The notes: a model not told the origin generated them from the sequence alone. Shown: positions 6,018 to 60,403, counted from the stretch's first letter. The stretch: 64,000 bases of DNA from an uncultured Candidatus Saccharimonadales bacterium (GCA_964609585.1 CAZSRA010000001.1:156697-220696), one strand, 5' to 3'. A program made the numbers and translations.

Positions 6018-6029
6018 GGCTTTTCTCTC

Positions 6030-7253: not shown

Positions 7254-7304
7254 TAGTGTAGCCGATTTGGAGATTTTTTGCCTGAGAATATGAATTTTAG
7301 TTTG

Positions 7305-8408
7305 CTAGCGGAAGTGGATGAAATACAGCGAACTTGTCTGCCATTCGTCGACGGAGTAATGACCGGTGTTGTCGGCGTTGAAGCTCGAGACGATGACAGT
7401 GGAGCTTTTGACCTGCTCAACAATCATGGCATGTCCGAAAGCTCCGCCCATATAGATGGCCACATCACCGATATGGGGCGAATTATCTACAGGGATCCCG
7501 GAGGCTCTGGCGTTACCGGGCCACTGGTTGGCATTGCCGCGTCCGCCCCAATAGGGCATGGTGTGGCCGAAGCGTTCGGCAGTGGCCCAGGCGGCGTAAC
7601 TTACACATTCACGGTTATACATTCCCCACGAATCGGCCATGCTGTCCTGTGGAGAATTGCACCAGACCGCGGGATATCCGCCGCAACCCGACCCGCCGCT
7701 AATGTGGTGGCTGGCGGCGGCGATAGCAATAGCCTGCTCGGATCGTAGCTTGGAAACCTGGGCATTAGAGTCTCGCACCTGCTGATCGGCAGAGGCGGCA
7801 TTTTGGCTGTAGAGTGCGAGTAATTGTGCGGCTTCATTCCGGGTTTTGTCTAGCGCTATTTGCTGACTTTTCTGATCTTCTAGAGTCTTAGCTAAGCTTG
7901 TTTGCTGATCTTCGAGCGACTTTTTTAACTTCTGAATCTCGTCCATAGCTGATTGAATTTTGGTTTTGATGGTTTCTCGGTATTGCTCGGTGTCTAAAAA
8001 ATCGCTTATGTTTTGGCTGGAAGCGAGCATTTCGATGGGAGAAACACTTGAGTCGAAGTACATTGTTTTTACGATGTCGGCGAGGACGGCTTTTTGGTTC
8101 GCTAGCTTGGCCTGTGCGTCGGCTATTTGGGCAATAAGTTTGGCCGACTGGGCTTCGTTCAAGTTGATCTGGGTTTGGAGTTCGCGGATTTGGGCATTGA
8201 GCTGGTTAAGCTTAGTTTGAGCGTCGCTGGCTTGGGCGTGAAAAGTTGCTGCTTGGGCTGCGGCATCGGCAGCTTGTTGTTTGGCGGCGGCAATGGCATC
8301 GTCGAATTGATCGGCGTACACATTGCCGGCTGAGAGCAACAGGATAAGCACGACGCTGAGGCTAGCGAAGATTTTTTTGAAGATTTGAATTTTTTGAACG
8401 CTACGCAA
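7305..8408 (-). CDS. PcsB-like secreted peptidoglycan hydrolase (coiled-coil plus C-terminal CHAP domain)
   Basis: Signal peptide; long Ala/Gln-rich coiled-coil; CHAP Cys (NRECVSYAAW) and His (GHAMIVE); sits directly downstream of ftsX. Confidence 0.75.
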   Translation of the reverse strand: MRSVQKIQIFKKIFASLSVVLILLLSAGNVYADQFDDAIAAAKQQAADAAAQAATFHAQASDAQTKLNQLNAQIRELQTQINLNEAQSAKLIAQIADAQAKLANQKAVLADIVKTMYFDSSVSPIEMLASSQNISDFLDTEQYRETIKTKIQSAMDEIQKLKKSLEDQQTSLAKTLEDQKSQQIALDKTRNEAAQLLALYSQNAASADQQVRDSNAQVSKLRSEQAIAIAAASHHISGGSGCGGYPAVWCNSPQDSMADSWGMYNRECVSYAAWATAERFGHTMPYWGGRGNANQWPGNARASGIPVDNSPHIGDVAIYMGGAFGHAMIVEQVKSSTVIVSSFNADNTGHYSVDEWQTSSLYFIHFR

Positions 8409-9406: not shown

Positions 9407-10095
9407 TTGCCGCCCTCGAGGGTGTAGCGGCCTTGCTCTTCGTCTTTGATGATACGACCGCGGTTGATGGTAATGACGCGGCGTTTGAGGGCGTTGACGA
9501 TTTCTTTATTGTGCGTGGTGAGGAGAACGGTAGTGCCGAAACGATTGATTTTGAGCAAGAGCTCAATAATTTCCCAAGCGTTTTTGGGGTCGAGATTGCC
9601 GGTGGGTTCGTCGGCGATGAGAATTTTGGGTTGGCGAATGAGCGCCCGGGCGATAGCGACGCGTTGGCGTTCGCCGCCGGAGAGCTCGTGAGGGTAGGCA
9701 CGTTCTTTGGAGGCGAGGCCGACCAGGGTGAGCATTTTGGGCACAGCGCGCTTGATCTCGCGGCCTCTGGCACCCGAAACTTCGAGCGCGAAGGCCACGT
9801 TTTCGCCGACTCGTCTGCCCGGGAGGAGCTTGAAGTCTTGGAAAACGACACCGATGCGGCGGCGAACAAGTGGGACGTCGCGGGGACGGATGGTGTCGTA
9901 GTCGAGTCCGCCCACAATGAGCTTGCCGGAGGAGTGCACTTCTTCGCGGGTCAGAAGTTTGATGAGGGTGGATTTGCCGGCACCACTGGAGCCGACGATG
10001 GTGACAAATTCCTTGGGTTGAATATGCAGATTGAGACCGCTGAGAGCGATCATTTGATTTGGGTAAACTTTCGTAACGCGGTCAAAGAGAATCAT
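9403..10095 (-). CDS. ftsE: Cell division ATP-binding protein FtsE
   Basis: Walker A GSSGAGKST, signature LSGGERQRVAIARA, Walker B ILIADEPT. Confidence 0.85.
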   Translation of the reverse strand: MILFDRVTKVYPNQMIALSGLNLHIQPKEFVTIVGSSGAGKSTLIKLLTREEVHSSGKLIVGGLDYDTIRPRDVPLVRRRIGVVFQDFKLLPGRRVGENVAFALEVSGARGREIKRAVPKMLTLVGLASKERAYPHELSGGERQRVAIARALIRQPKILIADEPTGNLDPKNAWEIIELLLKINRFGTTVLLTTHNKEIVNALKRRVITINRGRIIKDEEQGRYTLEGGK

Positions 10096-10124
10096 TTGGT
10101 ACTAGTTTATCATATGAGGGGTTT

Positions 10125-11228
10125 TTAGGCCTTGGGGCCAATTTGACTGTTGAGATAGGCCTCAATGAAGAGCTCGAGATTGCCGTCAAGGACACCCTGG
10201 GCGTCATTCGTTTCAGCACCTGTGCGGACGTCTTTGACCTTGGTGTAGGGGTGGAGGACATAGTTTCGGATTTGGCTTCCCCATTCGGCCGATTTGTCGC
10301 TGGCTCGCAGGTCGGTGAGCTCGGCTTTGTTTTGCGCCTCCATGAGAGTGGCCAGGCGAGATTTTAAAATAGCCATGGCTTTTTCTTTGTTTTGGAGTTG
10401 GGAACGCTCATTTTGGATGGCGACGACAAGGCCGGAGGGAATGTGCGTAATGCGTACGGCTGAGTCGGTAGTGTTTACCGACTGGCCGCCGTGGCCGCCG
10501 GAGCGGTAGACGTCGATGCGAAGGTCTTTGGGATCGATCTCGAGCTCGGGACCAGAATCGATTTGAGGCAAAACTTCGACGAGCGCGAAAGAGGTTTGAC
10601 GTAGGTTGTCGGAATTGAAGGGGCTTAGGCGTACGAGACGGTGCACTCCCCCTTCCCCTTTGAGCTTGCCATAGGCGTAGGGGCCATTAACTTCGAACGT
10701 GACACTTTTGATGCCGGCTTCTTCGCCGGGCGAGGTGGAGTCGATTTCGGCGACAAAGCCTTCGCGTTCGGCCCAGCGCAGATACATGCGCTCAAGCATT
10801 TCGGCCCAGTCTTGAGCATCGGTGCCGCCGGTGCCGGCGTGGATTTCAACGATGGCAGACGAACGATCGTGGGGGCCGGAGAGTTTGAGTTCGAATTTGC
10901 GGCGGTCGAATTCGGTTTGGGCGGTTTCGTAGAGTTCGCGGATTTGGGCACTGAGTTCAGGGTCGTGGCTGTCTTGTTCAAGGCGAGCTAGATCGAGTGT
11001 TTCGCGGGCTTCAGCTCGGAGCCGGGTCCAAGACTCAATATGCCGATTGAGTGCTGCGAGGGTTTTGGAGATTTCGCTTGCGCCTATGGGGTTGGACCAG
11101 AAATTGGGGTCGAGTGTCTGCTCGTGTAGAGCCGTAGCTTTGGCTTGGTCAGTGTCGATATCGAGCTGAATCATAGCGGCACTAATGTCGCTGTCGAGGG
11201 TTTCTAACTGGCGGATTAATTCTTGCAT
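10125..11228 (-). CDS. prfB: Peptide chain release factor 2 (no programmed frameshift)
   Basis: SPF and GGQ motifs; continuous ORF. The true start is probably MQELIR (ATG 11226-11228), because the ORF-track N-terminal extension runs through a terminator hairpin. Confidence 0.85.
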   Translation of the reverse strand: MQELIRQLETLDSDISAAMIQLDIDTDQAKATALHEQTLDPNFWSNPIGASEISKTLAALNRHIESWTRLRAEARETLDLARLEQDSHDPELSAQIRELYETAQTEFDRRKFELKLSGPHDRSSAIVEIHAGTGGTDAQDWAEMLERMYLRWAEREGFVAEIDSTSPGEEAGIKSVTFEVNGPYAYGKLKGEGGVHRLVRLSPFNSDNLRQTSFALVEVLPQIDSGPELEIDPKDLRIDVYRSGGHGGQSVNTTDSAVRITHIPSGLVVAIQNERSQLQNKEKAMAILKSRLATLMEAQNKAELTDLRASDKSAEWGSQIRNYVLHPYTKVKDVRTGAETNDAQGVLDGNLELFIEAYLNSQIGPKA

Positions 11229-18489: not shown

Positions 18490-19548
18490 ATGTCGCATCT
18501 CGGATCTCGAAAGCCGCGACTGGCGGGCTGGCTTCCAGTGGTACTCGCAGCCATACTGGCGGCGGGTTGTACTGGCGGTGGCTCGTCGTCCGTGGGCGGG
18601 CAAGTCTCGGCTGCTACCTCGGTGTCGGCTTCGGCGAAGTTGAGCGGCTCAACGCCTTCTGCGGCGACTCCGACTTCTGCGACGAATCCCAGTGTGATGG
18701 TGCTCGGCGACTCGTACTCCTCAGGACTCGGGGTGCAACCCAACCAACAGGTTCTGCAGGGGCCTTCGAGCTGCTATCGTTTGCCGGACGGCTGGGGAAG
18801 TAAGTTCGCTACACCAGCCGGTGTGGTGGCATGTGCCGGTGCCGAAACGGCCGATATATTTTCAGCCAACCAGGCTGTCGGAGTGCCGTCCCAGCTCGAC
18901 CGACTGAAGTCGGATGCGAACGCGAAGATCGTGACCATCACGATTGGCGGCAACGATGCCGGCTTCCTGTCGGTGCTGCCGGCGTGTGTGACTGGTTTCG
19001 GCTCAAAGGGCAGTTCGGACTGCAAGAACCATCCGGCAGACCCGAAGCTTTGGTCCAAGGTCGACGCTTGGCTGACGGCTCTGAGTGGCCCAACGGCTGG
19101 AGAGGCTACCAGTACGCTGACTGCTGATGGCCGGCCGGTGTACTCTCTGAAGGATGTCTACCAGGCAATCTACGAGGCCGATCGGTCTGTCGACCGAATT
19201 CTGGTGGTGGGGTATCCCCTTCCCTTCGATGAGACCAAGGTGGGCGCATGTACGGTTGGTGGCCCTTACCAGGTCAGCGATTCGGACAAGCGCTGGATCA
19301 ACAAGCTCGTGATTCGGCTCAACCAAGCGAGTCAGGATGCCGTGAATGCCCTTCAGCGTAGCGGGGTGCCGATCACCTATGTGTCGTTGGCCCCGTCTTT
19401 TGACGGGCATGGGTTGTGTGGAGCCGAAGCTCCCTATCTGAATGGCGTTAGCATCGTGGCTCTGGCGCCATCTCCTGCCGGCTTCCACCCCGATCCGGCA
19501 GGCCAGGCCGCTATTCTTGCGGCCGTCAAGGCGGCAGCTGGAGTGTAG
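18490..19548 (+). CDS. Secreted lipoprotein, SGNH/GDSL-family hydrolase (high-GC ORF)
   Basis: Lipobox LAAGC; Ser/Ala-rich linker; block I VLGDSYSSG; block III GGND; C-terminal FHPD. Confidence 0.7.
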   Translation: MSHLGSRKPRLAGWLPVVLAAILAAGCTGGGSSSVGGQVSAATSVSASAKLSGSTPSAATPTSATNPSVMVLGDSYSSGLGVQPNQQVLQGPSSCYRLPDGWGSKFATPAGVVACAGAETADIFSANQAVGVPSQLDRLKSDANAKIVTITIGGNDAGFLSVLPACVTGFGSKGSSDCKNHPADPKLWSKVDAWLTALSGPTAGEATSTLTADGRPVYSLKDVYQAIYEADRSVDRILVVGYPLPFDETKVGACTVGGPYQVSDSDKRWINKLVIRLNQASQDAVNALQRSGVPITYVSLAPSFDGHGLCGAEAPYLNGVSIVALAPSPAGFHPDPAGQAAILAAVKAAAGV

Positions 19549-24376: not shown

Positions 24377-24997
24377 ATGCGTAACATCTCACAGTTTGCA
24401 ATATCTATGGTATTGCTGGCTTCTCAGGTTCACATCCCCGGTATGGGTGATGTGGCCGCCACCGCTGCGGCGTCCGCGTCCAGCAGTGGAGTTTACGAGG
24501 TGAAACTTAATACCAACACTGCCGAGGCGGTTGAGTTGGTTGGCAAAAAGCCGGCCGATTTCGACGCCGAGGTGCTCACTCCGCTCCGGGCTGCGCAGGC
24601 AGCAGCTGCGGCTGCGGCCGCTAAGGCTGAGGCTGCGGCAAAGGCGGCGGCTTACGCTAAAGCTCACCGAGTAGTCGTTTATGCGGCTCCGGCGTTGCAG
24701 ATAGCTGGTAGCCACGCCGACTGGATGCGCGCGGCCGGTATTGCCGAAAGCGATTTCGGTTATGTCGATTACATCGTTGACCACGAAAGTGGTTGGGGTG
24801 TAACCAAGAGCAACTACAGTGGTTCGGGTGCTTACGGACTGGGTCAGGCCCTGCCCGCCAGTAAAATGGCGAAGTTTGGTGCCGACTACCTGACCAACCC
24901 GATCACGCAGTTACGTTGGGCGAATGCCTATGCAGTGGGCTCTTATGGTTCGTGGGCGAATGCTTACAACCATTGGATGACCCGCCACAACTGGTAA
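24377..24997 (+). CDS. Secreted protein with Ala-rich linker and C-terminal transglycosylase-like/lysozyme-like domain
   Basis: Signal-like N-terminus; poly-Ala segment; ESGWGVTKSNYSGSGAYGLGQALPASKMAKFG with a W-rich C-terminus. Confidence 0.5.
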   Translation: MRNISQFAISMVLLASQVHIPGMGDVAATAAASASSSGVYEVKLNTNTAEAVELVGKKPADFDAEVLTPLRAAQAAAAAAAAKAEAAAKAAAYAKAHRVVVYAAPALQIAGSHADWMRAAGIAESDFGYVDYIVDHESGWGVTKSNYSGSGAYGLGQALPASKMAKFGADYLTNPITQLRWANAYAVGSYGSWANAYNHWMTRHNW

Positions 24998-41538: not shown

Positions 41539-41614
41539 GGTCCTGTCGTCTAGTGGTTAGGACATCCCCCTCTCACGGGGAAGATCAGGGGTTCGAATCC
41601 CCTCAGGACTACCA
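41539..41614 (+). tRNA. tRNA-Glu (anticodon CUC), CCA encoded
   Basis: 76-nt cloverleaf with 7-bp acceptor GGTCCTG/CAGGACT, anticodon loop CTCTCAC and T-loop GGGGTTCGAATCCCC. Confidence 0.85.
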
Positions 41615-41655
41615 TAAGTTGCTCTTTAGAACCGTAATCAGTAAAAAATTGCGGG

Positions 41656-42263
41656 TTACCCAAAACAAGGCTTTCGGCCTTGTTTTTTGGTTGCACAATG
41701 AAGTGGTTGGCGAGCGTTTTTATGGCGCGGTATGGTTCGGCCGTCCACTTCTTCGAGCGTGTTGTGGTAGCCGATGGCTGCCCTGTTAACGGTACCGCCT
41801 GACTTGGCTTTTTGGATCATGCCTTTGGCGACTTCGTTGGCTAGGTTGCCGGAATGGAACTCGGCGATGGTAGCCATGATGCCGTGGAGGAGCTTGCCGG
41901 ACGGGGTCTCGTCAATGTTCTCGGTAGCGGATACTAGCTTGGCTCCAGCGGTATGTAAAGCCAGGTTGGTGTAAACGTCATCTTCCCTGTTGCGGGCAAG
42001 GCGGTCGATTTTGTGAACGATGACGTAATCTATGGTTTTCGCTTCTTTGAGTAAGGCGAGCATGGGCTTGGAGCTGTGGTCGGTCGGCGGAGCGGGCAGA
42101 CTCTCCCCTATCGATTAACTCGGCGGTAACTTCTGCGCCTAGGCTTTCGGCTTTACGGGTACAGGCTTCGCGCTGGGTGGGGATTGAGTAGCCTTCGGGG
42201 TCGCGGTCTTTCTCTGCTTGGCCGGGGGGTCGAAACCCGGAGATATATAACAGCTTGCTTCAT
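41656..42263 (-). pseudogene. Serine recombinase (resolvase/large serine recombinase catalytic domain), frameshifted and 3'-truncated
   Basis: ATG with AAGGAGGTG RBS gives MKQAVIYLRVSTP; the frame is lost at a G6/C6 homopolymer (42223-42228), resumes with ...DRLARNRED... in a third frame, and the ORF finally reads through the terminator hairpin. No C-terminal DNA-binding/recombinase domain remains. Confidence 0.7.
41660..41690. terminator. Bidirectional terminator hairpin downstream of the tRNA
   Basis: CCAAAACAAGGC-TTTCG-GCCTTGTTTTTTGG. Confidence 0.6.
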
Positions 42264-42372
42264 ACTGGCACCTCCTTCGTGTTAGTCCAGGAGAGGATAC
42301 CAGATGTTTGCCGAATCACGGAGGATAAAACATCATCGGCTTTCCCGGCTGTTTAGTCGTCAGAAGAGAAAT

Positions 42373-42391
42373 ATGTAATTGAAAATTACAT
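42373..42391. promoter_or_regulatory. Perfect inverted repeat upstream of the recombinase remnant (candidate recombinase binding or res subsite)
   Basis: ATGTAATT-GAA-AATTACAT. Confidence 0.3.
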
Positions 42392-42666
42392 AGAGTTGCC
42401 TGCACATTGGGGACGATAATGTGTCTGGTAAAGCTAAATCACGACAAATTACGTGACAGCGATCTAGCGGACGAAACAGCAGGTGATCTAATATTTCCAT
42501 GCCAGGAGAGAGTTAGACTAATAGGCTTTCAGCTTCATAAGTCGCTCCCTAAGTAGTATGTATATAATGGAGTTGTCGGATTTAACGGCCATAGGCTTGG
42601 GGAAAGCATTTCGGGTGATTTGAGGGCTACATCAGTTGAATAGCGAAGTGAAAATTATTCTTAACC

Positions 42667-42701
42667 AAAAAAACTGCCAGTATTTAACTGGCAGTTTTTT
42701 T
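42667..42701. terminator. Bidirectional rho-independent terminator
   Basis: AAAAAAACTGCCAG-TATTTAA-CTGGCAGTTTTTTT. Confidence 0.65.
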
Positions 42702-42711
42702 GGTTAAAGCT

Positions 42712-43023
42712 TTAGCACTCGGGAAGTTTGAGCAGGTTATTCTGATCAGTTGCATCGGGGCGAGTCTGCAAGAACTTTGTTCCGTTGGCGCTAGTGTTCA
42801 CGTAGCAGTATGCTCGAGGGCGTACTCGTTCAACGTAGGCACGTACTTCAAAACCTAGGCTCCCGTTAAGATAGCTCACAACGGTCTCTCGCGTACTAAT
42901 CACATTTTTGCTTACTCTACCATCGGGCTCATATTGCACCCATTGGTAGTGGGTTGCTGCCTCGTGGGGGTTAGAATGGTTCCCGTTATCTTTTCGAATA
43001 CCAACTATTTCAATTTCTGCCAT
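42712..43023 (-). CDS. Small hypothetical protein (103 aa), second gene of a two-gene island operon
   Basis: ORF immediately followed by a terminator; no recognisable catalytic motif. Confidence 0.45.
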   Translation of the reverse strand: MAEIEIVGIRKDNGNHSNPHEAATHYQWVQYEPDGRVSKNVISTRETVVSYLNGSLGFEVRAYVERVRPRAYCYVNTSANGTKFLQTRPDATDQNNLLKLPEC

Positions 43024-43181
43024 TGCAAATCCTTCAGATATGTTACATTGTAATTATTATCCAAATCTGCTACTGTAGCAGGTGATCCGGAAATTCGGCT
43101 GCCAGGCCATTGTTTTCGGTTTAAAGAGTCTCGGTAGCGAAACCTGTCGAGCCTCTTTTTATTTGCCTACATTCCGCCCTC

Positions 43182-43649
43182 CTAAAATGGTATGTCACCC
43201 AAGTTTATTTTTCCCTCGTCCTCACTTGTGTTGTCGGTGTCCGTTGTATCTGGTTCTTTTGTGAATTCTTTCTCTTTGAGCTGGATTACGTAAGCATCAC
43301 CCTCAGAGTTAATTCCTAATATGCGTAGCGGTACTTTCTCAAAATTGTCGTACCTGCCACTGTACTTCGATGTATCAATATTCTTGATATCAAAAAACGA
43401 ATTCGCCACGATAACACCGCCTTGGGTATCGTTCGGAATTCGTACCTTTAAACCATATTTTGCATCCGCGAGAGTGAAATGAAGCGCAATTTTTTGATTT
43501 TCTCTGTCATACAAGAGAATGGCCTTGTGCTGGCTGGTGATATTTTGTTTTCCGATGAACGCACGGGGCAAGCCGAATGCCTTATTCTCGGTGATTGAGA
43601 TATATTCTTTGGTCCTAACCCCAACGTCTTTAAATATCTCGAAAGGCAC
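43182..43649 (-). CDS. Hypothetical protein with acidic disordered C-terminal tail ending DIPF (SSB-C-terminus-like)
   Basis: C-terminus EPDTTDTDNTSEDEGKINLGDIPF; N-terminal two-thirds is beta-rich and of unknown fold. Confidence 0.45.
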   Translation of the reverse strand: MPFEIFKDVGVRTKEYISITENKAFGLPRAFIGKQNITSQHKAILLYDRENQKIALHFTLADAKYGLKVRIPNDTQGGVIVANSFFDIKNIDTSKYSGRYDNFEKVPLRILGINSEGDAYVIQLKEKEFTKEPDTTDTDNTSEDEGKINLGDIPF

Positions 43650-44329
43650 TTTTTCTACTCCGACTCCGAATGATTTTATTGATATTGTTATCGTATTCCC
43701 CTTGCTCTCTTAATGCAATACCTCCCCTTGTGAACTCTTATTCTCACTCTTTGTGGTGTAAATGGGCTGCCGGGTTTGAACATTTAGATGGTAGTAGATA
43801 CAAAAAACCAAAGATCTAGCCCCATAGTTCTTATGGCTTAGTAAATTACTTGTATTTTTCCTGCTAATAAATATCTCCTTGTAATATTGATATTGTCACG
43901 TTGTTTCTCTTTAAATACGCAGCGAGCTGTTCTTTGTGTGGCTAAACACAATATGCGGCTATAGTCTGCTTCGGCTAAGACTGTCGTATGGCCACTGACT
44001 GAGTAGACATATATGTTCAATCGTTCTGAAGCCGACAGAACAGGACTACCAAAGGATTTATTTGAGTGTGCTCCCGGAAAAGTCGGCAAGAAAGATGCTG
44101 GCTTTTTGGCTCTAGCCAAATACCAGCAAGGGCGAATATGAACATCACAAAAGCGAGGACGGTATTATAATTCATGGCCTCAGCGCGTCAAAACCCTTGC
44201 TATAGCATATATGTACAACTGATATCATGTATGAAAGTTTTGTGTGCGCGGGAATTTGCACTTGTTGTCACGCCAGGGGGATGCTTGTGCATACCAATTT
44301 GGGGCGGCATGGGACGGTTTTATCCGAGC

Positions 44330-44338
44330 TGATATAAT
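44330..44338 (+). promoter_or_regulatory. Extended -10 promoter element (TGaTATAAT) for the 44388 gene
   Basis: TGATATAAT lies about 50 nt upstream of the ATG; AGGAG RBS at 44378. Confidence 0.45.
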
Positions 44339-44387
44339 GGCTCATTAACGCGTACTCTCTGTCGTATCACTGAGGATAGGAGCTACA

Positions 44388-44987
44388 ATGCTTGATTGGA
44401 TCATCACCATTATTAAATGGCTGGGTGTTGATTGGACCGCCTTAATCACAACTGTATCTGGCGCAATAGTGGCCTTGGCTACCGCCGGTGGTGTCGTGGC
44501 GGCATGGGTTGGGCTGGACACATGGAAGAAGCAGCTTCGTGGGACTACGGAGTACGAATTGGCAAAACGGGTACTCATGAGTGTTTATGGGGTTCGTGAC
44601 AGCATGAGAGCTGTAAGGGATCCCTTTATATCTCCAGGGGAGGCCGACGATGCTGCCGAGGGGGACTGGGAGCTCTCGGCGTATCAAAACCGTTGGGGTA
44701 AGTTTGTCGAGGTTGCCAGAGAATTGGACGTTGGACTGCTTGAGGCTGAGGTCGTTTGGGAGAATAATCCTCTCAGGGGCTATCGAGCCGAGTTGAACAA
44801 GCCGATTGCCGGACTTGTGATCGCCATAAGGCACCTTACTCAGGATAAAAGAACGCTACGCTCAACTTTATTTTCCGAGAAAGACGAGAAAGTATTGTAT
44901 GCCGAAGGGGATGATGACTTCGACAAAGAATTAACCAGGATTGTTGGTAAATTTGAGGATTTCATACGACCTCATTTGAAGAAGTGA
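44388..44987 (+). CDS. Hypothetical membrane-anchored protein (N-terminal TM, cytoplasmic acidic domain)
   Basis: Hydrophobic N-terminal helix; no known motif. Confidence 0.45.
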   Translation: MLDWIITIIKWLGVDWTALITTVSGAIVALATAGGVVAAWVGLDTWKKQLRGTTEYELAKRVLMSVYGVRDSMRAVRDPFISPGEADDAAEGDWELSAYQNRWGKFVEVARELDVGLLEAEVVWENNPLRGYRAELNKPIAGLVIAIRHLTQDKRTLRSTLFSEKDEKVLYAEGDDDFDKELTRIVGKFEDFIRPHLKK

Positions 44988-45227
44988 GGTTGATGGTGGC
45001 ATTTATTTTGCATCATGTCGTGCTGGTGGTGATGTTGACTCAAAGTGTAGTGAGATGATTCCCTAGACTCTCTGGAGCTTAAGTCACCTTATTTTTGTAA
45101 TTATCTTTACGGTTATGATAAGGCGTAGCTATTTATTTGTATTTTAATGATAATTATGTTATAGTGTTCTAATCGTTGATCTCGAGATTTTTTGAGACGA
45201 CGACGCGATCTTGACTATCACAGCTAT

Positions 45228-45246
45228 TGAGCGTGATGAACGCTCA
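45228..45246. promoter_or_regulatory. Palindrome overlapping the putative promoter of the cold-shock-domain gene
   Basis: TGAGCG-TGATGAA-CGCTCA located between TTGACT and the GAGGAGG RBS. Confidence 0.3.
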
Positions 45247-45260
45247 GTGAGGAGGCCGTA

Positions 45261-45914
45261 ATGGCTGGTACCGCACGCCCCCGTTCCGCTGGCCAGTCGG
45301 GCGGCCAGAGTACGGTACGGGTGGTCTTCGTGAGGGTGGTTGGGTACTTCTCCGACCGCGGCTTCGGCTTTGCCGAGATCATCGGCGAAACCAGTGGACC
45401 CACAAAGGTCTTCTTCCGCATCGAGAAGCTCTGCATCGTGACCGGCTCCTATGAGGAGCCGAAGTTCGCCGACCCTCACCCGAACCCGGCGGAGATCAAC
45501 CCGCTCCAGATCGAGGCCGGAAGGCAAGTCGTGATGGAGGTGGAATCTACCACTAAGGGCCTGCGGGCACGGCGTTGGGGAATAGCCCCTGTGTTCTCGC
45601 CGATCACCCAGCTTATTCGCGAGAAGGTGCTGGACGGCTTCATCGGTGGGCATGTGGGCATATACCAGAACGGCAGGCGGTTCGTGGCGTACCCCAAGGG
45701 GACATTCACGGGCTATGAGCTCACCGAAAGTGAGCTTACCGTGTACTTCACCTGGGAGGACTTCGGTGACTCGGTCCTGGAGGGTTACCAGGATCACCGG
45801 CAGTACTACTTCACTGGGCCCGCCTGGCGACTCGGCTTTGGGGGACTGCTCGAACTCCATCCCTCGGACCACTCCGATGAGCTGATCATGTTCTGGCCTC
45901 CGGACCAGAAGTGA
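45261..45914 (+). CDS. Cold-shock-domain (CSD) fusion protein with unknown C-terminal domain (high-GC ORF)
   Basis: VRVVGYFSDRGFGFAEIIGETSGPTKVFF matches the CspA RNP1/RNP2 pattern; about 150 further aa of unknown function. Confidence 0.5.
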   Translation: MAGTARPRSAGQSGGQSTVRVVFVRVVGYFSDRGFGFAEIIGETSGPTKVFFRIEKLCIVTGSYEEPKFADPHPNPAEINPLQIEAGRQVVMEVESTTKGLRARRWGIAPVFSPITQLIREKVLDGFIGGHVGIYQNGRRFVAYPKGTFTGYELTESELTVYFTWEDFGDSVLEGYQDHRQYYFTGPAWRLGFGGLLELHPSDHSDELIMFWPPDQK

Positions 45915-45923
45915 GCTCGCGAC

Positions 45924-45975
45924 GCCGGAGCCCCGGAGATTGGCGCGCATTACGCGCGTCCTCTGGGGCTCCGGC
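45924..45975 (+). terminator. Long nested GC-rich hairpin downstream of the CSD gene
   Basis: GCCGGAGCCCCGGAG ... CTCTGGGGCTCCGGC enclosing GCGCGCATTACGCGCG. Confidence 0.45.
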
Positions 45976-46222
45976 CTCAGACTAAGTTCTCAACTATGTT
46001 GAGAGTTTAGAATGAGTTGATGGATTTGGGCTGGATCTCTTACGATGCGCAGTTGTAACAAGTTAGCAGTCTCTATACTCAAGAACTTAACTTGCTTTAT
46101 AACAAATTTAGTGTTATTACTATATATAGTTCTTTTACATCGTTAGTGGGGAGCTAGTTGTTTGTCTTGGGTTGGTGAAGATTGACAGTTAGCTCTACAA
46201 GCTGCCGCGGAGAGAAGGCGTC

Positions 46223-46735
46223 ATGTTAGATGGCAGCCAAAACCCCAGGAGGTTTTCAGTGAGCACCGAACTGCACTTCGATCCGGACAACTTTCCGCCT
46301 GAGCTCTTGCCGTTCGCAGAGTTGCGTGACGGTTTCCTGTGCTACGTGAGACAGGATGTTCTGATCGAGGTTCCCGAGGGCTTCGCTGGCGCAACGCTCA
46401 TTCACGTCATCCTCACCCAAGACGTCAACTCTGATCTCGGTGAGGGCATCGTCAAGCAGGGCGGCGCTACTGCGACCGTGAAGGTCGCGACCTGCAAGAT
46501 CCACGAGACGACCATCATCGTGGGGGTACCGGATCTCGATCAGGCGAATGCGCTCCTTCGGGACGTCGTGGCTGGTACCGTCGACTTCACGACGACGATC
46601 CGACCGCGGCCGGAGGAGACTGGAGCGTCAACTGCGGCGGGCCGGCTGGCAGAATATCTGGGCTGGGTCGAACACGACACTCAAAAGGCCGCTGCACTGC
46701 TCGGCGAGGGTCTGAGGCGTCTGTTCGGCAAGTAA
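46223..46735 (+). CDS. Hypothetical protein (high-GC ORF)
   Basis: ORF with a GAGAGAAGG RBS; no known motif. Confidence 0.4.
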   Translation: MLDGSQNPRRFSVSTELHFDPDNFPPELLPFAELRDGFLCYVRQDVLIEVPEGFAGATLIHVILTQDVNSDLGEGIVKQGGATATVKVATCKIHETTIIVGVPDLDQANALLRDVVAGTVDFTTTIRPRPEETGASTAAGRLAEYLGWVEHDTQKAAALLGEGLRRLFGK

Positions 46736-46813
46736 CGGGGAGCATCATGGGCGGGTGGCCTGGGCGAGAAATCGCCCGGGTCACTCGCCCGCTTCCTGTT
46801 TTAGGGATCGGAA

Positions 46814-55138: not shown

Positions 55139-56005
55139 GTGAATATTTCATTGTCTATTGTGTTTGGACTTCTCTCAATGCTTGGCTATGGCTTTGCGAA
55201 TGCGTTTTCGCAAAAGCTTGTACGCTCGCTCGGGCCGGCGCTGATGTTGTTTTGGCGGGGTCTTGTAATGGTGGTGGTGCTAGCAGTTGGGGCCGTGGTT
55301 GATTGGCATCATTTGGGGTCGTGGCCGGTGGTGCTGGCGGCTGTTGGCCTCGGTATGGCAGGTTATTTGCCGGTGTTGGCGTTTTCGCATGGCCTGAAGG
55401 AGAGCCGGTTGGGCGTTGTGGCACCGATTGCTGGTACTTCTCCGCTTATTACGGTGCTGCTGGCGGCGGCGTTTTTGGGGTCGCCGGTAGCGGTGGTTCA
55501 ATGGGTGGCGATTGGACTGGTGGTGATCGCAAACATTGCGGTGTCGGTGGACGTACGCAATTGGCGCGATTCGAAGGTACTGCAGCGTTCGAGCGGCATT
55601 GCTTATGCGCTGGCGGCGGCGGTGGGTTGGGGCATCTTTTTCTTTGCAATGGTGCCGTTGTCGCGGGCGCTAGGACCATGGGTGTCGGCGTGGGCGGCGG
55701 AAGTGGGGGTGACGGCGGCGGCGGGTTTGCATTTGCTGGCGATGCGGCCACTGGTGCGGACGGGAGTCGTGAACTGGCGAGGGATTGTAGTAAACGGGCT
55801 TCTGACCTGTGTGGGGACGGTGGCGTTTACCGTGGGGGTGCGGTATTTCAATGTGGAGATTGTGGCAGTTTTGGGCAACTCAACGGCACTTGTGGGTGTG
55901 CTTCTGGGTTCGCTGCTACTCGGTGAACGGCTTCATCTGAAGGAGAAGGCGTCGGTGGTGGTGATGATGGTGGGAGTTGCGATTATTTCGCTGTTTCGGG
56001 CTTAA
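55139..56005 (+). CDS. EamA/DMT-family transporter
   Basis: 10 TM helices in two EamA-like repeats. Confidence 0.7.
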   Translation: MNISLSIVFGLLSMLGYGFANAFSQKLVRSLGPALMLFWRGLVMVVVLAVGAVVDWHHLGSWPVVLAAVGLGMAGYLPVLAFSHGLKESRLGVVAPIAGTSPLITVLLAAAFLGSPVAVVQWVAIGLVVIANIAVSVDVRNWRDSKVLQRSSGIAYALAAAVGWGIFFFAMVPLSRALGPWVSAWAAEVGVTAAAGLHLLAMRPLVRTGVVNWRGIVVNGLLTCVGTVAFTVGVRYFNVEIVAVLGNSTALVGVLLGSLLLGERLHLKEKASVVVMMVGVAIISLFRA

Positions 56006-59000
56006 CATACTCCTGCCAGGATTTGATTGGGACGTTTTCAAGCTTGATCTCGCTTAAGGCACGCAAGAGGATGACGCCGATTTCGGCATTGGTGACGAGC
56101 GGAATGTGGTTGTCGATGGCGAGGCGGCGGATGTCGCGGGCGTCAGCGTCGTCTTTGGTGCTCGAAGGGATGTTGATCATGAGGTTGATGTGGTGAGCGG
56201 CGATAGCGGTTTGGACGGTAGGCTCTTTGTGCTCGCGGAGTTTATATAGGGGTTCCGAGGCGATGCCGTGAGCTTTTAAATAAGCGTGAGTACCGACGGT
56301 TGTGTAGATGTGCCAACCGGCGTCAGCAACCCGAGCGGCTGCCTCGGTGATTTTGGCTTTTTGCTCATCTGGGACGCTCAGGAACAAACGTTTGCCGACT
56401 AGGGGTTGGTCGGTGGAGAGCCAGGAATTGTAGAAGGCTTCGAGTAGGTTTCCGCCAATGCTTGCGACTTCGCCGGTGGAGGCCATTTCTACACCGGCGA
56501 CGGGATCGGCACCTTTGAGGCGGTTGTAGGAGAACTGGGGGCTTTTGACGCCGACGTAATCGAGTTCGAGGGTTTCGTAGTGGGCGGGTTTGTAGGTACC
56601 GAGCATGACTTGGGTTGCGATGGTGATGAAATTGTGGCCAGTGACCTTGGAGACGAACGGGAAGGAGCGGGAAGCGCGGACATTGGTTTCGATTACTTTT
56701 AGGTCATTGTCTTTGGCGATGAATTGAATGTTGAAGGGTCCGGTGACCTTAAGCTCGGCGATGATTTGAGCGGTGATTTTTTTGGCACGGCGGATGGTTT
56801 CCAGATAGAGGCGTTGAGGTGGAAGGACAACAGTGGCATCGCCGGAGTGAATGCCGGCGTTTTCGATGTGCTCGGAAATGGCGGAGATGATGATTTTACC
56901 GCCATTTGCGACGCCGTCGATTTCAAGCTCTTTGGCGCCTTCGATGAAGCGGGAAATCACTACGGGATGGTCGGGCGAGAGTTTAGTAGCGCGGGCGAGA
57001 TAGCCGGCGAGTTCAGTAGGGCCTGTGACGACACTCATGGCCCCGCCGGAAAGCACATAGGAGGGCCGAATGAGTACAGGGTAGCCGACTTTTTTGGCAA
57101 AGGCTTGAGCTTTTTCAAGGGTGGTGACTTCATCCCACTCGGGCTGATCGATGCCGAGACTACCCAGCATGGCCGAGAAATGGCGACGATTTTCGGCTTG
57201 GTCGATGGAGCTGGCAGTGGTGCCTAGGATGTGGTAGCCGGCGTTTGCGAGCGGGACCACGAGGTTGTTGGCGATTTGGCCACCGACCGAAATGATGATG
57301 TCGGCGGGGGTTTCGAAATCGGCGATATCGCTGAGGCGTTCGAGCGTGAGTTCTTCGAAATAAAGGCGATCAGAGCGATTGAAGTCGGTGGAGACGGTTT
57401 CGGGGTTGGAGTTTACGATAATGGTGCGGCGGCCGGATTCGCGCAGCGTGCGGGCAACGCCAACCGCGCACCAATCGAACTCAACGGATGAGCCGATGCA
57501 ATAGGGGCCGGAACCAAGGACAATGACGGGCGTGTCGGACAAGGGTACAACATCATTTTCGGTGCCGTGATAGGTGGTATAGAGGTAGTTGGTGGTGGCG
57601 TCGAATTCGCCGGCTAGGGTGTCGATTTGTTTGATGACGGGTTTGACGCCAAGCCTCAGGCGCAGTGTGCGAATGGTATCTGGGGTGACGCCGGTGAGTT
57701 TTGCGATGGTTTTGTCGGAAAAACCAGCTTGTTTTACGGTGCGCATAAACTCAGGGGTGAGATCGGATGTAGGAATTTGAGCTTCGAGATCTGCGACGCG
57801 CATGAGTTGATGCAAAAACCAAGGGTCGATGCCGGTTTTGGCATGCGCCTCGGTAACGTCGCCGGTGCTTTTGAGATATTCGTAGAGCGCGTAAAGGCGG
57901 TGATCGGTGGCGGGAGCAATTTCTTTGATGGGATCGGGGTAGTCGAAGGGATGGTCGGTGAGGCCATCGGCGCCGGTGTTGGTCATGCGGATGGCTTTTT
58001 GGAGTGCTTCGGGGAAGGAGCGGCCGAGCGCCATGACTTCGCCGACGCTTTTCATTTCGGAGCCAATGGTTCGGTCTGAGGCACCGAGTTTGGTGAGGTC
58101 CCAGCGTGGCATTTTGATGGCGAGGTAGTCGAGAGCTGGCTCGTAAAAGGCGCTCGTGGTGCCGGTGACGCTATTTTTAAGTTCTGGCAAGTTGTAGCCG
58201 AGCATGAGTTTGGCGGCCACAAATGCTAGTGGGTAGCCGGTGGCCTTGGAGGCTAGCGCACTGGAGCGGGATAGGCGGGCGTTTACTTCGATTACACGGT
58301 AATCGCTGGTTTTGGGGTCGAGCGCGTATTGGATGTTGCACTCCCCCACTATGCCGAGGTGGGTGATGGTTTTGATAGCGACTTCGCGCAGGCCATGGTA
58401 TTCGGCATTGGTGAGCGTTTGTGAAGGCGCTACCACGATGCTTTCGCCGGTGTGAATGCCCATGGGGTCGAAGTTTTCCATGTTGCAGACGGTAATAACG
58501 TTGCCGGACGAGTCACGCACGACTTCGTATTCGATTTCTTTCCAGCCGCCGAGGAATTCTTCAATGAGGATTTGTTTGGTAGCTTGGAAGACTTCGGTGG
58601 TGCGTTTTTTGAGTTCGGCTGGGGTGTTGATGCGGCCGGAGCCAAGACCGCCGAGGCTGAAACCTGAACGCATCATAATGGGATAGCCGATTGTAACTGC
58701 GGCTTTCAGCGCTTCTTCAACGCTGTAGGTACTGATGCTGCGGGCGGTGTGGACGCCGATTTGTGTTAGGGCTTCTTTGAATTTTTCGCGGTCTTCGGTG
58801 GTTTCAATAGTGGCAACGGGGGTGCCGAGGACTCGGATATTGTATTGTTTGAGGATACCGCTACTGGCTAGAGCGAGGCCGAGGTTGAGGGCGGTTTGGC
58901 CGCCGAAGCTCAGGGCGATGGCGTCGGGCCGCTCTTTTTCGATGATGCGGGTGACGGCATTTTGGGTGAGGGGCTGAAAATAGACGGTGTCGGCCATATC

Positions 59001-59180
59001 GCCATCGGTTTGAACGGTGGCGATGTTGGGATTGATGAGGACGGTGGTAATTCCCTCTTCTTTCATGGCCATAATGGCTTGAGAGCCGGAATAGTCGAAT
59101 TCACCGGCTTGGCCAATTTTTAAGCCGCCGGAGCCGAGGATGAGAACTTTTTGGGGTTTGGAGGGGTTTTGCGCGTTCAT
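55983..59180 (-). CDS. carB: Carbamoyl-phosphate synthase large subunit
   Basis: 1065 aa with duplicated ATP-grasp halves and MGS-like C-terminus. Confidence 0.95.
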   Translation of the reverse strand: MNAQNPSKPQKVLILGSGGLKIGQAGEFDYSGSQAIMAMKEEGITTVLINPNIATVQTDGDMADTVYFQPLTQNAVTRIIEKERPDAIALSFGGQTALNLGLALASSGILKQYNIRVLGTPVATIETTEDREKFKEALTQIGVHTARSISTYSVEEALKAAVTIGYPIMMRSGFSLGGLGSGRINTPAELKKRTTEVFQATKQILIEEFLGGWKEIEYEVVRDSSGNVITVCNMENFDPMGIHTGESIVVAPSQTLTNAEYHGLREVAIKTITHLGIVGECNIQYALDPKTSDYRVIEVNARLSRSSALASKATGYPLAFVAAKLMLGYNLPELKNSVTGTTSAFYEPALDYLAIKMPRWDLTKLGASDRTIGSEMKSVGEVMALGRSFPEALQKAIRMTNTGADGLTDHPFDYPDPIKEIAPATDHRLYALYEYLKSTGDVTEAHAKTGIDPWFLHQLMRVADLEAQIPTSDLTPEFMRTVKQAGFSDKTIAKLTGVTPDTIRTLRLRLGVKPVIKQIDTLAGEFDATTNYLYTTYHGTENDVVPLSDTPVIVLGSGPYCIGSSVEFDWCAVGVARTLRESGRRTIIVNSNPETVSTDFNRSDRLYFEELTLERLSDIADFETPADIIISVGGQIANNLVVPLANAGYHILGTTASSIDQAENRRHFSAMLGSLGIDQPEWDEVTTLEKAQAFAKKVGYPVLIRPSYVLSGGAMSVVTGPTELAGYLARATKLSPDHPVVISRFIEGAKELEIDGVANGGKIIISAISEHIENAGIHSGDATVVLPPQRLYLETIRRAKKITAQIIAELKVTGPFNIQFIAKDNDLKVIETNVRASRSFPFVSKVTGHNFITIATQVMLGTYKPAHYETLELDYVGVKSPQFSYNRLKGADPVAGVEMASTGEVASIGGNLLEAFYNSWLSTDQPLVGKRLFLSVPDEQKAKITEAAARVADAGWHIYTTVGTHAYLKAHGIASEPLYKLREHKEPTVQTAIAAHHINLMINIPSSTKDDADARDIRRLAIDNHIPLVTNAEIGVILLRALSEIKLENVPIKSWQEYVKPETAK

Positions 59181-60403
59181 AATTTGTCCATAAAATCTTT
59201 AAAGAGCCAGGCGGTGTCGGTGGGTCCTGGAGCGGCTTCGGGGTGGAACTGGACAGCGGAGAAGGGTTTGGTAACGTGAGCGATGCCTTCTACGGAATTG
59301 TCGTTGAGGTTGCGAAAGGTCACGCGCCAGTCGCTCGGGAGAGAGTCTTCGGCTATCGCATAACCATGGTTTTGACTGGTGATGTAGCCGCGGCCAGGCG
59401 AATATCGGAGTTCGCGCACTACGGCGTCGCTGTCTGCGGTTCTCGCGCGCCGTACGTCTGAGTACGTCTTGCTGCGGTCCTCGTCATCTCCTTGCATTGC
59501 ATCAATCTCCGATGTTCGCGCACTAAGCACGGGCTGATTGTGGCCGCGGTGGCCGAAGCGAAGTTTGTAGGTGGTGGCGCCGGCGGCAAGTGCCATGAGC
59601 TGGGTGCCGAGGCAGATGCCGAAGACGGGTTTATTTTGAGACATGGCTTTTTGGAGAACCGCGATGGTTTCCTGGTAATCGGTGGGATCACCGGGTCCGT
59701 TGGAGATAAAGACGCCGTCGTAGGTTTCGGCGGTGTAGTCGTAGTTGTGCGGAACACGTTTTACCGTGAGGCCGAGGCCGGTGAGATGACGCAGGATGTT
59801 CTCTTTCATGCCGCAGTCTACGGCAATGATGGTTTTTGGTTTTCCGGGATTTAAGATTTGCGGTTGGTCGATAGAGACTTTGATAGTTTTGAGCGCGGCG
59901 TTCTCAAGGTTTGGCGCCGTTTCGGAGCTCGAAATAACGCCAGCCATGGTGCCGCGGGTACGCAAGTATTTGGTGAGGGCGCGGGTATCGACACCGGTGA
60001 TAATGGGGACATTTTGTGCGCGGAGCCAGGCACCCAGCGACCTCAGGCTACCTTCGTGGCTCCAATTTTCGGTGAGCTCGCTCACGACGACTCCGCGCAG
60101 ATGGATTTTGGCTGATTCCCAGGTTTCTGGACCGGGCACGCCATAATTGCCAAGCAGTGGGTAGGTGAAGACGAGGATCTGGCCGGCATATGACGGGTCG
60201 GTGAGGGTTTCTACGTATCCGGTCATGCCGGTGTTGAAAACGGTTTCGCCGATGAGGCTGTCGGATTGCCACTCAGGAGCCATTCCTTCATAACTTTGGC
60301 CTCCGGCAAGCACTAATTTGGTGGGTTTTGTCACAAAAAAATCGCCCCCATCGGGACGACCGCTTGCATTTGTAGTTTGAGTTGTGACATCTGGATTTTT
60401 CAC
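59177..60403 (-). CDS. carA: Carbamoyl-phosphate synthase small subunit (glutamine amidotransferase)
   Basis: VFNTGMTGYVETLTDPSYAGQ; GATase triad region GICLGTQ; 4-bp overlap with carB. Confidence 0.9.
   Translation of the reverse strand: MKNPDVTTQTTNASGRPDGGDFFVTKPTKLVLAGGQSYEGMAPEWQSDSLIGETVFNTGMTGYVETLTDPSYAGQILVFTYPLLGNYGVPGPETWESAKIHLRGVVVSELTENWSHEGSLRSLGAWLRAQNVPIITGVDTRALTKYLRTRGTMAGVISSSETAPNLENAALKTIKVSIDQPQILNPGKPKTIIAVDCGMKENILRHLTGLGLTVKRVPHNYDYTAETYDGVFISNGPGDPTDYQETIAVLQKAMSQNKPVFGICLGTQLMALAAGATTYKLRFGHRGHNQPVLSARTSEIDAMQGDDEDRSKTYSDVRRARTADSDAVVRELRYSPGRGYITSQNHGYAIAEDSLPSDWRVTFRNLNDNSVEGIAHVTKPFSAVQFHPEAAPGPTDTAWLFKDFMDKL

Follow-up and report, generated by a model that had tools for sequence, protein, structure and literature searches.

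The window analysed here is a stretch of 64,000 nucleotides from an uncultured Candidatus Saccharimonadales bacterium (GCA_964609585.1 CAZSRA010000001.1:156697-220696), and between its positions 44,388 and 46,735 lie three consecutive plus-strand genes, which we call g1, g2 and g3. A preliminary description made from the sequence alone had placed three separate hypothetical genes without catalytic signature there; the open reading frame (ORF) call agrees on all three, and none of their products gives a significant match in Pfam, NCBIfam, PHROGs or PADLOC. The genes make up the distal half of a mosaic accessory island of about 5.2 kb (41615-46813), bordered by a tRNA-Glu(CTC) gene on the left and by a conserved, convergent pair of ABC-transporter genes on the right (Table 1). 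GC content ranges from 41% to 62% along the island; the window as a whole has about 54% GC, and its plus strand shows a strongly positive GC skew. Taken alone, the locus is an unremarkable accessory island of hypothetical genes; its interest comes through the family to which g2 belongs.

Table 1. Features of the island, followed by related loci; positions are those of the window unless a locus handle (L number) is given.
Feature	Position	Strand	Basis or remark
tRNA-Glu, anticodon CTC, island left edge	41539..41614	+	ARAGORN; Rfam tRNA 66.9 bits
Serine recombinase (resolvase-type) pseudogene, three reading frames, 3′-truncated	41656..42263	-	Pfam Resolvase 5.4e-17 on 135-aa piece
Perfect 21-nt inverted repeat, 5-nt loop, 3′ of DUF3892 gene	42661-42707		Inverted-repeat search and terminator scan
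DUF3892 gene, island cargo	42712..43023	-	Pfam DUF3892 2.5e-9; PHROG 8224 1e-5
AT-rich 155-aa ORF, island cargo	43182..43649	-	GC 0.42; composition z = -3.0
Putative extended -10 promoter element TGATATAAT, upstream of g1	44330..44338	+	One of five TGnTATAAT sites on both strands of the window
g1, 199 aa, predicted N-terminal membrane anchor and helical, mildly acidic domain	44388..44987	+	ORF call, hydropathy, isoelectric point
Candidate g2 promoter, extended -10 TGTTATAGT	45157..45165	+	Same type as TGnTATAAT promoters of homologs
TTGACT hexamer	45211..45216	+	No usable -10 at 16-18 nt; not called by promoter scan
Inverted repeat TGAGCGT-GATGA-ACGCTCA, 7-bp stem, 5-nt loop	45228..45246	+	Centroid fold of putative 5′ untranslated region keeps hairpin
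g2, 217-aa protein, predicted cold-shock domain fusion	45261..45914	+	ORF call; 23 distant homolog clusters; AlphaFold2 model, pLDDT 82.6
g2, predicted cold-shock domain, residues 22-105, RGFGFA and VFFR	45324..45575	+	Family profile, hhalign, Foldseek
g2, predicted C-terminal domain, residues 108-217, acidic	45582..45911	+	AlphaFold2, pLDDT 82.8, pTM 0.74
Long nested GC hairpin 3′ of g2, terminator-like	45921..45978	+	Arms 45921-45938/45961-45978; -50 kcal/mol, z = -6.35
g3, 158 aa from probable GTG start, orphan, acidic (isoelectric point 4.7), GC3 0.72	46259..46735	+	ORF call, Shine-Dalgarno sequence
20-bp GC hairpin with T-rich tail CTTCCTGTTT, putative g3 terminator, island right edge	46748..46791	+	Terminator scan; -55.7 kcal/mol, z = -8.45
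Distant g1 homolog, megaplasmid (NZ_CP125298.1)	L143 5905-6531		
Distant g1 homolog, megaplasmid (NZ_CP049160.1)	L144 5905-6531		
Leaders of g2 homologs	L002 7760-8000; L003 7760-8000; L007 605-846; L055 770-1008; L066 3945-4187; L123 4600-4838; L142 4760-5000		
Leaders of further g2 homologs	L051; L080; L139		

A word-seeded homology search with g2 returned only the query itself. This reflects a limit of sensitivity, given that an exhaustive phmmer search of 1.84 billion representative proteins (E ≤ 1e-3) later retrieved 25 sequences: g2, 23 relatives of approximately 190-290 aa that align over their full length (alignment A1), and one false positive, a repeat protein. The exhaustive search and the AlphaFold2 (AF2) models were made for g2 only. 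Sequence comparison makes g2 the most divergent member of its family, which is rare and consists of proteins of about 210 aa. Pfam and NCBIfam hold no model for it, no source gives it a name, and we found no description of it in the literature on cold shock, Saccharibacteria, Patescibacteria and GC3. Conserved blocks of the family are [KR]GFGFAE, VFFH and R-x-V-T-G-T-x-D-E-P-x-L-T (the last in most members), together with IVM-x-V-x4-KG-x-RA-x2-WG-x2-P, an IGG motif and a C-terminal RI-x-F-x2-P. Within A1, F51, A103 and W106 are invariant, and F35, G36 and F37 are conserved in at least 90% of the sequences.

The N-terminal domain of g2 is predicted to be a cold-shock domain (CSD) with a five-stranded antiparallel OB fold, recognised from the profile of the family and from the structure model alone. 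The A1 profile matches Csp structures in the PDB (CspA, CspB and CspD) at E 2.3e-5 to 1e-3, and 13 of the 24 family members match the Pfam CSD family PF00313, the best of them at 3.2e-5. Alignment by hhalign to a sequence taken to be that of B. subtilis CspB gives 95.8% probability and E 6.6e-9 over g2 residues 22-105; the PDB matches are independent of this query. In the AF2 model built on A1, the predicted local distance difference test score (pLDDT) is 89-97 for the blocks from residue 21 to 70 and 87-97 for those from 71 to 110. Foldseek places the N-terminal ~90 residues of this model on the CSDs of Lin28/Lin28B, CspA, CspB and YB-1, with probability 1.00 and target TM values of 0.6-0.78, and the same part also superposes on a phage CspD. 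The RNP1-like RGFGFA occupies residues 33-38 and the RNP2-like VFFR residues 50-53, so that both RNP motifs are present with their aromatic residues.

Members of the g2 family share with CspA/CspB-type proteins (PF00313) the five-stranded OB fold, an RNP1-like K/R-G-F-G-F, an RNP2-like V-F-F-H/R, an aromatic residue in strand 1 and, presumably, the binding of single-stranded nucleic acids. They differ in size (~210 aa vs 65-70), in a conserved insertion of ~20 residues, in an Arg-rich N-terminal tail and in an additional beta domain of ~110 aa. At 217 aa and with this extra folded domain, g2 is not a CSD-alone protein, and the preliminary description was right to set the fusion apart from ordinary small Csp genes; its second domain is shorter than the ~150 aa first given to it, and the CSD, which in g2 holds the insertion between strands 3 and 4, is not the canonical one that had been described. 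A CSD used as the nucleic-acid module of a larger protein is also known from Lin28, Y-box proteins, M. tuberculosis CspB (134 aa) and the N-terminal CSD of ECA1580, and multi-domain CSD proteins of the Lin28 and Y-box type are the best structural matches of the g2 N-terminal domain. However, the C-terminal domain of g2 is unrelated to zinc knuckles, to the disordered Y-box tails and to DUF1294. One locus (L003) carries, directly upstream of its full-length family gene, a 128-aa partial CSD-fusion paralog (7281-7667, plus strand; hmmsearch 7e-9) that keeps the WG-x2-P block and has a degenerate RNP1.

The three parts of g2 are unlike in charge: the Arg-rich basic N-terminal tail has an isoelectric point (pI) of 12, the cold-shock OB fold one of 8.1 and the C-terminal domain one of 4.85. 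Modelled alone and with good confidence, this C-terminal domain (~110 aa) is all-beta, with seven strands and two short helices. Its fold matches nothing credible in the PDB (best E 0.02, TM 0.3-0.4), and its sequence has no PDB match. The models thus point to a novel domain and, in its combination with a CSD, to a new architecture in an undescribed family; g2 would represent a new architectural variant of the known CSD family. We hypothesize that the CSD binds single-stranded RNA or DNA through its RNP1/RNP2 face, in the manner of Csp proteins, and that the non-catalytic C-terminal domain provides dimerisation or partner contact. Because the one part would bind nucleic acid and the other would make protein contacts, g2 may act as an RNA chaperone or post-transcriptional regulator and not as an enzyme. 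An enzymatic role is unlikely since the near-invariant residues of the C-terminal domain are one Pro and one Gly, with no conserved residues of catalytic type.

The product of g1 has a hydrophobic N-terminal segment at residues ~19-43 (Kyte-Doolittle maximum of 1.92 over 19 residues) and a mildly acidic remainder (pI 5.2; 29 D+E vs 24 K+R), and the gene is not GC-rich, with a GC content of 0.50 overall and of 0.52 at third codon positions (GC3). These traits are as first described, including the single N-terminal transmembrane segment. A conserved ...E-D-F-I-R-P-H-L-K motif closes the C-terminus. A metagenomic homolog, P0004, aligns with g1 end to end at 31% identity (pairwise E 8e-25), the C-terminal IRPHLK included, and tblastn adds two plasmid-borne hypothetical proteins of 208 aa, one from Paraburkholderia sabiae (pPs24235_2, E 3e-6) and one from Caballeronia (pSBC1_4, E 2e-3); the four sequences have 27 invariant positions. 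The two plasmid homologs are placed alike, each inside a long array of small hypothetical genes that all point the same way, with toxin-antitoxin modules, traH and insertion sequence elements nearby. The other known members are thus found on large plasmids, in the midst of small accessory genes, and g1 can be regarded as mobile-element cargo. The homologs show g1 to be a genuine gene; its family is small and associated with mobile elements, and its product would combine a membrane anchor with a helical domain. The family likeness to the proteins of those plasmid accessory-gene arrays is full-length; however, identity is only 20-24%, and the g1 copy is chromosomal and in an unrelated lineage. 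The PDB gave g1 no meaningful match, and the sole PADLOC match of its family (Cas8b, E 0.053) was treated as noise. Assignment to HEPN (RiboL-PSP) was rejected: the cut-off is 28.4 bits, and the matches, limited to the two plasmid homologs, score 13-15; there is no R-x(4-6)-H motif, and the only conserved R/H pair is the C-terminal R-P-H.

At the left edge of the island, a resolvase-domain gene starts 42 nt downstream of the tRNA-Glu gene, forming a junction of tRNA and recombinase. Three-frame translation recovers its pieces as MKQAVIYLRVST..., then ...GQAEKDRDPEGYSIPTQREA..., then ...MLALLKEAKTIDYVIVHKIDRLARNRED...; the gene is interrupted by two or more frameshifts, of which one falls on a C-run directly after the RVST motif, and its C-terminal part is gone. 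This arrangement resembles tRNA-adjacent islands in its position 3′ of a tRNA gene, in the tRNA-proximal recombinase gene, in cargo of atypical or mosaic composition and in small hypothetical genes with their own promoters, which recall 'moron'-like units. It differs in that the recombinase is a serine (resolvase-type) enzyme and not a tyrosine integrase, and in that it is frameshifted and truncated. Between the recombinase remnant and g1 lie the DUF3892 gene and the AT-rich 155-aa ORF; the latter has no family match in Pfam, NCBIfam, PHROGs or PADLOC. The inverted repeat 3′ of the DUF3892 gene is bordered by A/T runs on both sides and resembles a bidirectional terminator.

Composition was compared with a reference of 49 non-overlapping ORFs of the window, whose GC3 is 0.584 ± 0.061 with a maximum of 0.698. 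Against it, g2 (GC 0.62, GC3 0.79, z = 3.3) and g3 (GC 0.61, GC3 0.72, z = 2.3) are GC3-rich, and the spacers between g1 and g2 (273 nt) and between g2 and g3 (344 nt) have 39% and 47% GC; the quantitative comparison therefore upholds the GC-rich character first attributed to both genes. At the first two codon positions g2 is host-like (GC1 0.61, GC2 0.45). Host genes have extremely strand-dependent frequencies of C and G at third positions (C3, G3): approximately 0.45-0.56 and 0.10-0.17 in minus-strand genes, 0.13 and 0.4 in plus-strand genes. The values for g2 (0.43/0.36) and g3 (0.38/0.35) show no strand skew, and those of g1 (0.22/0.30) are intermediate. Because the two host strands have opposite third-position skews, we used the strand-aware fractions of C-ending and G-ending codons in two-fold families (NNC and NNG), which in the host are 0.27 and 0.58 on the plus strand and 0.66 and 0.25 on the minus strand. 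Both are high in g2 (0.83/0.85) and g3 (0.71/0.74), which rank first and second of 55 ORFs in this respect. Karlin's codon-bias B against the pooled reference is non-discriminating (z = 0.7-0.9). g2 is not equilibrated with the host strand bias, and composition does not identify a high-GC donor.

About 70% of the genes of the window lie on the minus strand, and it is the plus strand that is G-rich (skew of about +0.2); most coding strands are therefore C-rich, which is unusual. Two further plus-strand ORFs are without the host strand skew: 24377-24997, which encodes 206 aa with no Pfam match (NNC/NNG 0.65/0.73), and 18490-19548, a 352-aa member of the GDSL-lipase family (0.56/0.81). They are possibly additional foreign or recently inverted genes.

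Fifteen distinct loci with g2 homologs could be placed. A hand-built degenerate DNA pattern gave 61 and 70 stretches, 6 and 3 of which were confirmed by hmmsearch; the unconfirmed ones are chance matches, mostly in GC-rich genomes. The six GTDB representatives belong to Candidatus Saccharibacteria (two), Saccharimonadia (one), Parcubacteria (one, on a complete 1.19 Mb chromosome) and metagenome-assembled genomes (MAGs) labelled 'bacterium' (two), and one further member sits on a 1.13 Mb contig. The family has so far turned up only in candidate-phyla bacteria with small genomes, a group whose RNA biology has hardly been studied. Its members are stand-alone genes with varying housekeeping neighbours (ATP synthase, MurT, ribosomal protein L28, HisRS), and one copy sits between parA and parB. 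The loci fetched show no conserved neighbourhood and no g1-like or g3-like protein, and no relatives of g2 were found in phage records, plasmid records or viral contigs.

In all fifteen loci the family gene lies 4-17 GC points above its surroundings, with GC of 0.60-0.70 and GC3 of 0.62-0.96 vs 0.45-0.63 for the rest of the locus; its excess in GC3 over the hosts is 0.1-0.4. On the Parcubacteria chromosome (45% GC), for instance, the family gene has GC3 of 0.82 and its neighbours 0.37-0.53, ribosomal protein L28 being at 0.50. NNC fractions of 0.69-1.0 and NNG fractions of 0.81-0.97 are found in 9 of 10 family genes tested. The enrichment is limited to the ORF and the terminator hairpin; upstream, promoter and leader have an AT-rich or host-like composition. 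GC-richness of the ORF thus characterises the family as a whole and cannot by itself date or source the acquisition of g2 in the window. In two loci (L003 and L140) the family gene adjoins a glyoxalase gene, and since the two glyoxalases are 50% identical, this shared neighbour suggests long residence with high GC3 and not a fresh import.

The family gene often has unrelated neighbours that are also GC3-rich: in L140 an ORF of 220 aa (832-1494, 0.97); in L142 ORFs of 108 aa (5797-6123, 0.91) and 353 aa (6225-7286, 0.85); in L051 a gene for a Nudix protein (5574-6212, 0.82); in L002 one for a membrane protein (10028-10675, 0.79); and, in the window, g3 (0.72). They are mostly orphans, their genomes have about 45-55% GC, and no homology was found between the companion genes of different loci. 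In L002 the public annotation seems to have picked the wrong strand, as GC1 is 0.83 in the annotated frame and GC3 is 0.79 in the opposite ORF.

The account that we favour, with a probability of roughly 60%, is that of a decayed tRNA-linked island carrying three independent genes, of which g2 would be a CSD-type regulator whose GC-richness is a trait of its family. Several points weigh against it. No pair of direct repeats of the att type (attL/attR) was found around 41.6-46.8 kb, only short two-copy families of low identity. g2 alone matches no Pfam family at E ≤ 1, PF00313 included, and its RNP2 carries R where the histidine would stand. Both its nucleic-acid binding and the role of its C-terminal domain are inferred. 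Coding support for g3 consists of ORF length, periodic GC3, a Shine-Dalgarno (SD) sequence and a terminator, with no homolog, and read-through from g1 into g2 is possible, there being no clear g1 terminator.

The preliminary description had gone further and taken the GC-richness to suggest separate acquisition from a high-GC donor. On this view g2 and g3 would be recent imports that still show the unameliorated signature of that donor. Several observations agree with it: of the 55 ORFs, g2 and g3 deviate most in GC3, and both lack the host strand-specific C3/G3 skew, the island adjoins a tRNA gene and holds a recombinase remnant, and g2 is the most divergent member of its family, without the leader of most homologs and away from the glyoxalase-linked position of its relatives. 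Yet high GC3 is shared to the same degree by all 15 located members, whose hosts, of 45-63% GC, include no high-GC genome, and pairwise identities of 27-51% exclude a single recent source. The enrichment, moreover, ends at ORF boundaries and leaves AT-richer spacers, the first and second codon positions of g2 are host-like, and phages, plasmids and viral contigs offered no relatives. A recent import from a high-GC donor fits the trait poorly, and we regard it as rather doubtful. Some horizontal arrival of genes into the window is nevertheless likely because the island is tRNA-adjacent with a dead recombinase, because the host strand skew is missing, and because g2 is extremely divergent and without the family leader; the donor need not be GC-rich.

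That leader is a conserved stretch of ~200 nt upstream of ten g2 homologs, absent from the window copy. Its elements follow one another in this order: a TGnTATAAT promoter, a strong SD sequence with an upstream ORF (uORF), a pyrimidine-rich arm, a hairpin of the form GGTGCGGG-loop-CCCGTACC and a small SD hairpin. The uORF has 15-17 codons and begins M-x-W/Y... (MTYFN, MTWFN, MKWSY...); that of L142 has 47 codons and overlaps the main start. The upstream arm can pair with GGTGCGGG, and two compensatory changes accompany this pairing, GGTACGGG/CCCGTACT in L066 and GGTGCAGG/CCTGCACC in L142. Shuffle controls lend modest support, with per-locus p of 0.05-0.76 and, by our own Fisher combination, ~0.01. 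The leaders have no Rfam match, and we consider them a lead, a candidate new cis-regulatory RNA. A broader reading would join these observations: the g2 family and its orphan neighbours would form a class of genes in bacteria of the candidate phyla radiation (CPR) type, with synonymous sites held near GC saturation by selection on mRNA or translation, an undescribed uORF leader in most members and a GGUGCGGG...CCCGUACC hairpin with alternative pairings; g2 of the window would be a leaderless xenolog whose GC-richness does not stem from its foreign origin. We deem this joint reading unlikely. As to the cause of the high GC3, simple translational selection is not supported by the few housekeeping genes at hand.

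Expression signals also speak for our preferred account, the decayed island with three independent genes. For g1 these are the extended -10 TGATATAAT and an AGGAG (44378-44382) 5 nt before the ATG, both noted in the preliminary description; its 3′ side has no significant hairpin (z = +0.77). For g2, the same description had proposed transcription from TTGACT under a repressor acting on the palindrome TGAGCG-N7-CGCTCA. Both elements exist and are adjacent, and the perfect repeat, which in fact has a 7-bp stem and a 5-nt loop, is somewhat unusual. However, TTGACT has no correctly spaced -10 and escaped the promoter scan, and no regulator gene is adjacent. The extended -10 TGTTATAGT, 50 nt upstream, is a better fit and, as a match to the promoter type of the homologs, probably the best candidate for the g2 promoter.

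The palindrome itself is only mildly unusual because perfect 6-bp inverted repeats occur about once per 441 nt in the window (~0.14 expected per 60 nt). It lies 3 nt upstream of the SD sequence AGGAGG (45250-45255), and an SD-abutting hairpin stands at the same place in homologs L003 (CTGAGC-TTCG-GCTCAG), L055 and L123. Since several homologs have a hairpin there, the case for an RNA hairpin is no weaker than that for a protein-binding site. The g2 5′ region folds no better than shuffled sequences (z = -0.7 and -1.55), which strongly supports neither an operator nor a hairpin; a hairpin of the 5′ untranslated region is the more likely of the two, and the repressor-controlled TTGACT promoter is quite improbable. 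The long nested GC hairpin after g2, by contrast with the promoter, is as first described. Long GC hairpins stand in the same position directly 3′ of most g2 homologs; that of g2 was not called by the terminator scan because it has no U-tract. The idea that the hairpins are of the integron cassette/attC type was rejected, as there is no integron integrase and the hairpins are terminator-like.

g3 was first given 170 aa from an ATG at 46223. The ORF is confirmed; a GTG start at 46259, 6 nt past AGGAGG (46247-46252), appears more likely and gives the 158 aa of the public annotation. A word-seeded search of 5.8 billion proteins returned only g3 itself, and no relatives were found in the PDB, phage records, plasmid records, viral contigs or the g2-homolog loci. 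This absence is weak evidence because the word-seeded search also missed all the g2 relatives found by exhaustive HMMER. g3 would be a lineage-specific orphan, presumably a small, acidic, soluble protein. Could it be a chance open frame in GC-rich DNA? The lack of homologs would fit, as would the fact that several frames stay open in such DNA, for example the 263-aa antisense ORF across g2 (45159-45950, minus strand). Against this stand a coding-type pattern (GC1 0.66, GC2 0.43, GC3 0.72), a perfect AGGAGG ahead of the GTG, the 20-bp terminator hairpin 13 nt past the stop and the small weight of missing matches just described, and we hold a chance frame to be very unlikely. The antisense ORF itself was not accepted as a gene: it reads g2 in reverse, codon for codon, and this frame stays open as an artefact of GC-rich codon usage, because g2 uses no TTA, CTA or TCA codons. 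Similar shadow ORFs win over the true family gene at L055, L066 and L051 when ORFs are picked naively.

The three genes are intact, unrelated and independent units, not a system, and their signals suggest the same: g2 and g3 each appear to have their own SD sequence and strong hairpin, and g1 its own extended -10. That they form one module, for example an anti-phage or conflict system of membrane effector, nucleic-acid sensor and partner protein, is hardly credible: the genes are co-directional and adjacent within the island, CSD/S1 domains occur in conflict systems, one g2-family member weakly matched S1CSD-TOTE-2 (E 0.41), a Cmr6-CSD chain came up at E 0.53, and g1 relatives lie near toxin-antitoxin genes on plasmids, yet PADLOC gives no defence signature at E ≤ 1 for g1, g2 or g3 and none for the g1 family beyond noise, g1-like or g3-like neighbours never stand beside g2 homologs in the fetched loci, spacers of 273 and 344 nt and the separate terminators of g2 and g3 divide the genes, and the three are unlike in composition. 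The neighbourhood check that the preliminary description had proposed on the logic of defence islands accordingly came out negative, with no conserved neighbours, no PADLOC match and no phage or viral relatives.

A GC3 excess that is reproducible across loci and confined to the ORF weakens the routine reading of a GC-rich ORF as a recent import from a high-GC source. The question raised by the g2 family is instead what keeps such genes GC-rich.

The remaining window is ordinary chromosome, with genes for CTP synthase, PBP1, topoisomerase I, RF, Der, ScpA, RluB, DacB, CarAB and MurD. An Rfam scan of the window matched the tRNA alone. The third-position strand skew is similar to that of Saccharimonadia loci, and the glyoxalase of the window is 69% identical to that of the unclassified MAG GFS_6887, itself a carrier of a g2-family member; on these grounds the window plausibly comes from a CPR bacterium. 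Two features that leave room for doubt are atypical of minimal CPR genomes, namely a protein with LysM and an Rpf-type transglycosylase-like domain (PF06737; 60770-61411, plus strand) and CarAB (55983-60403).

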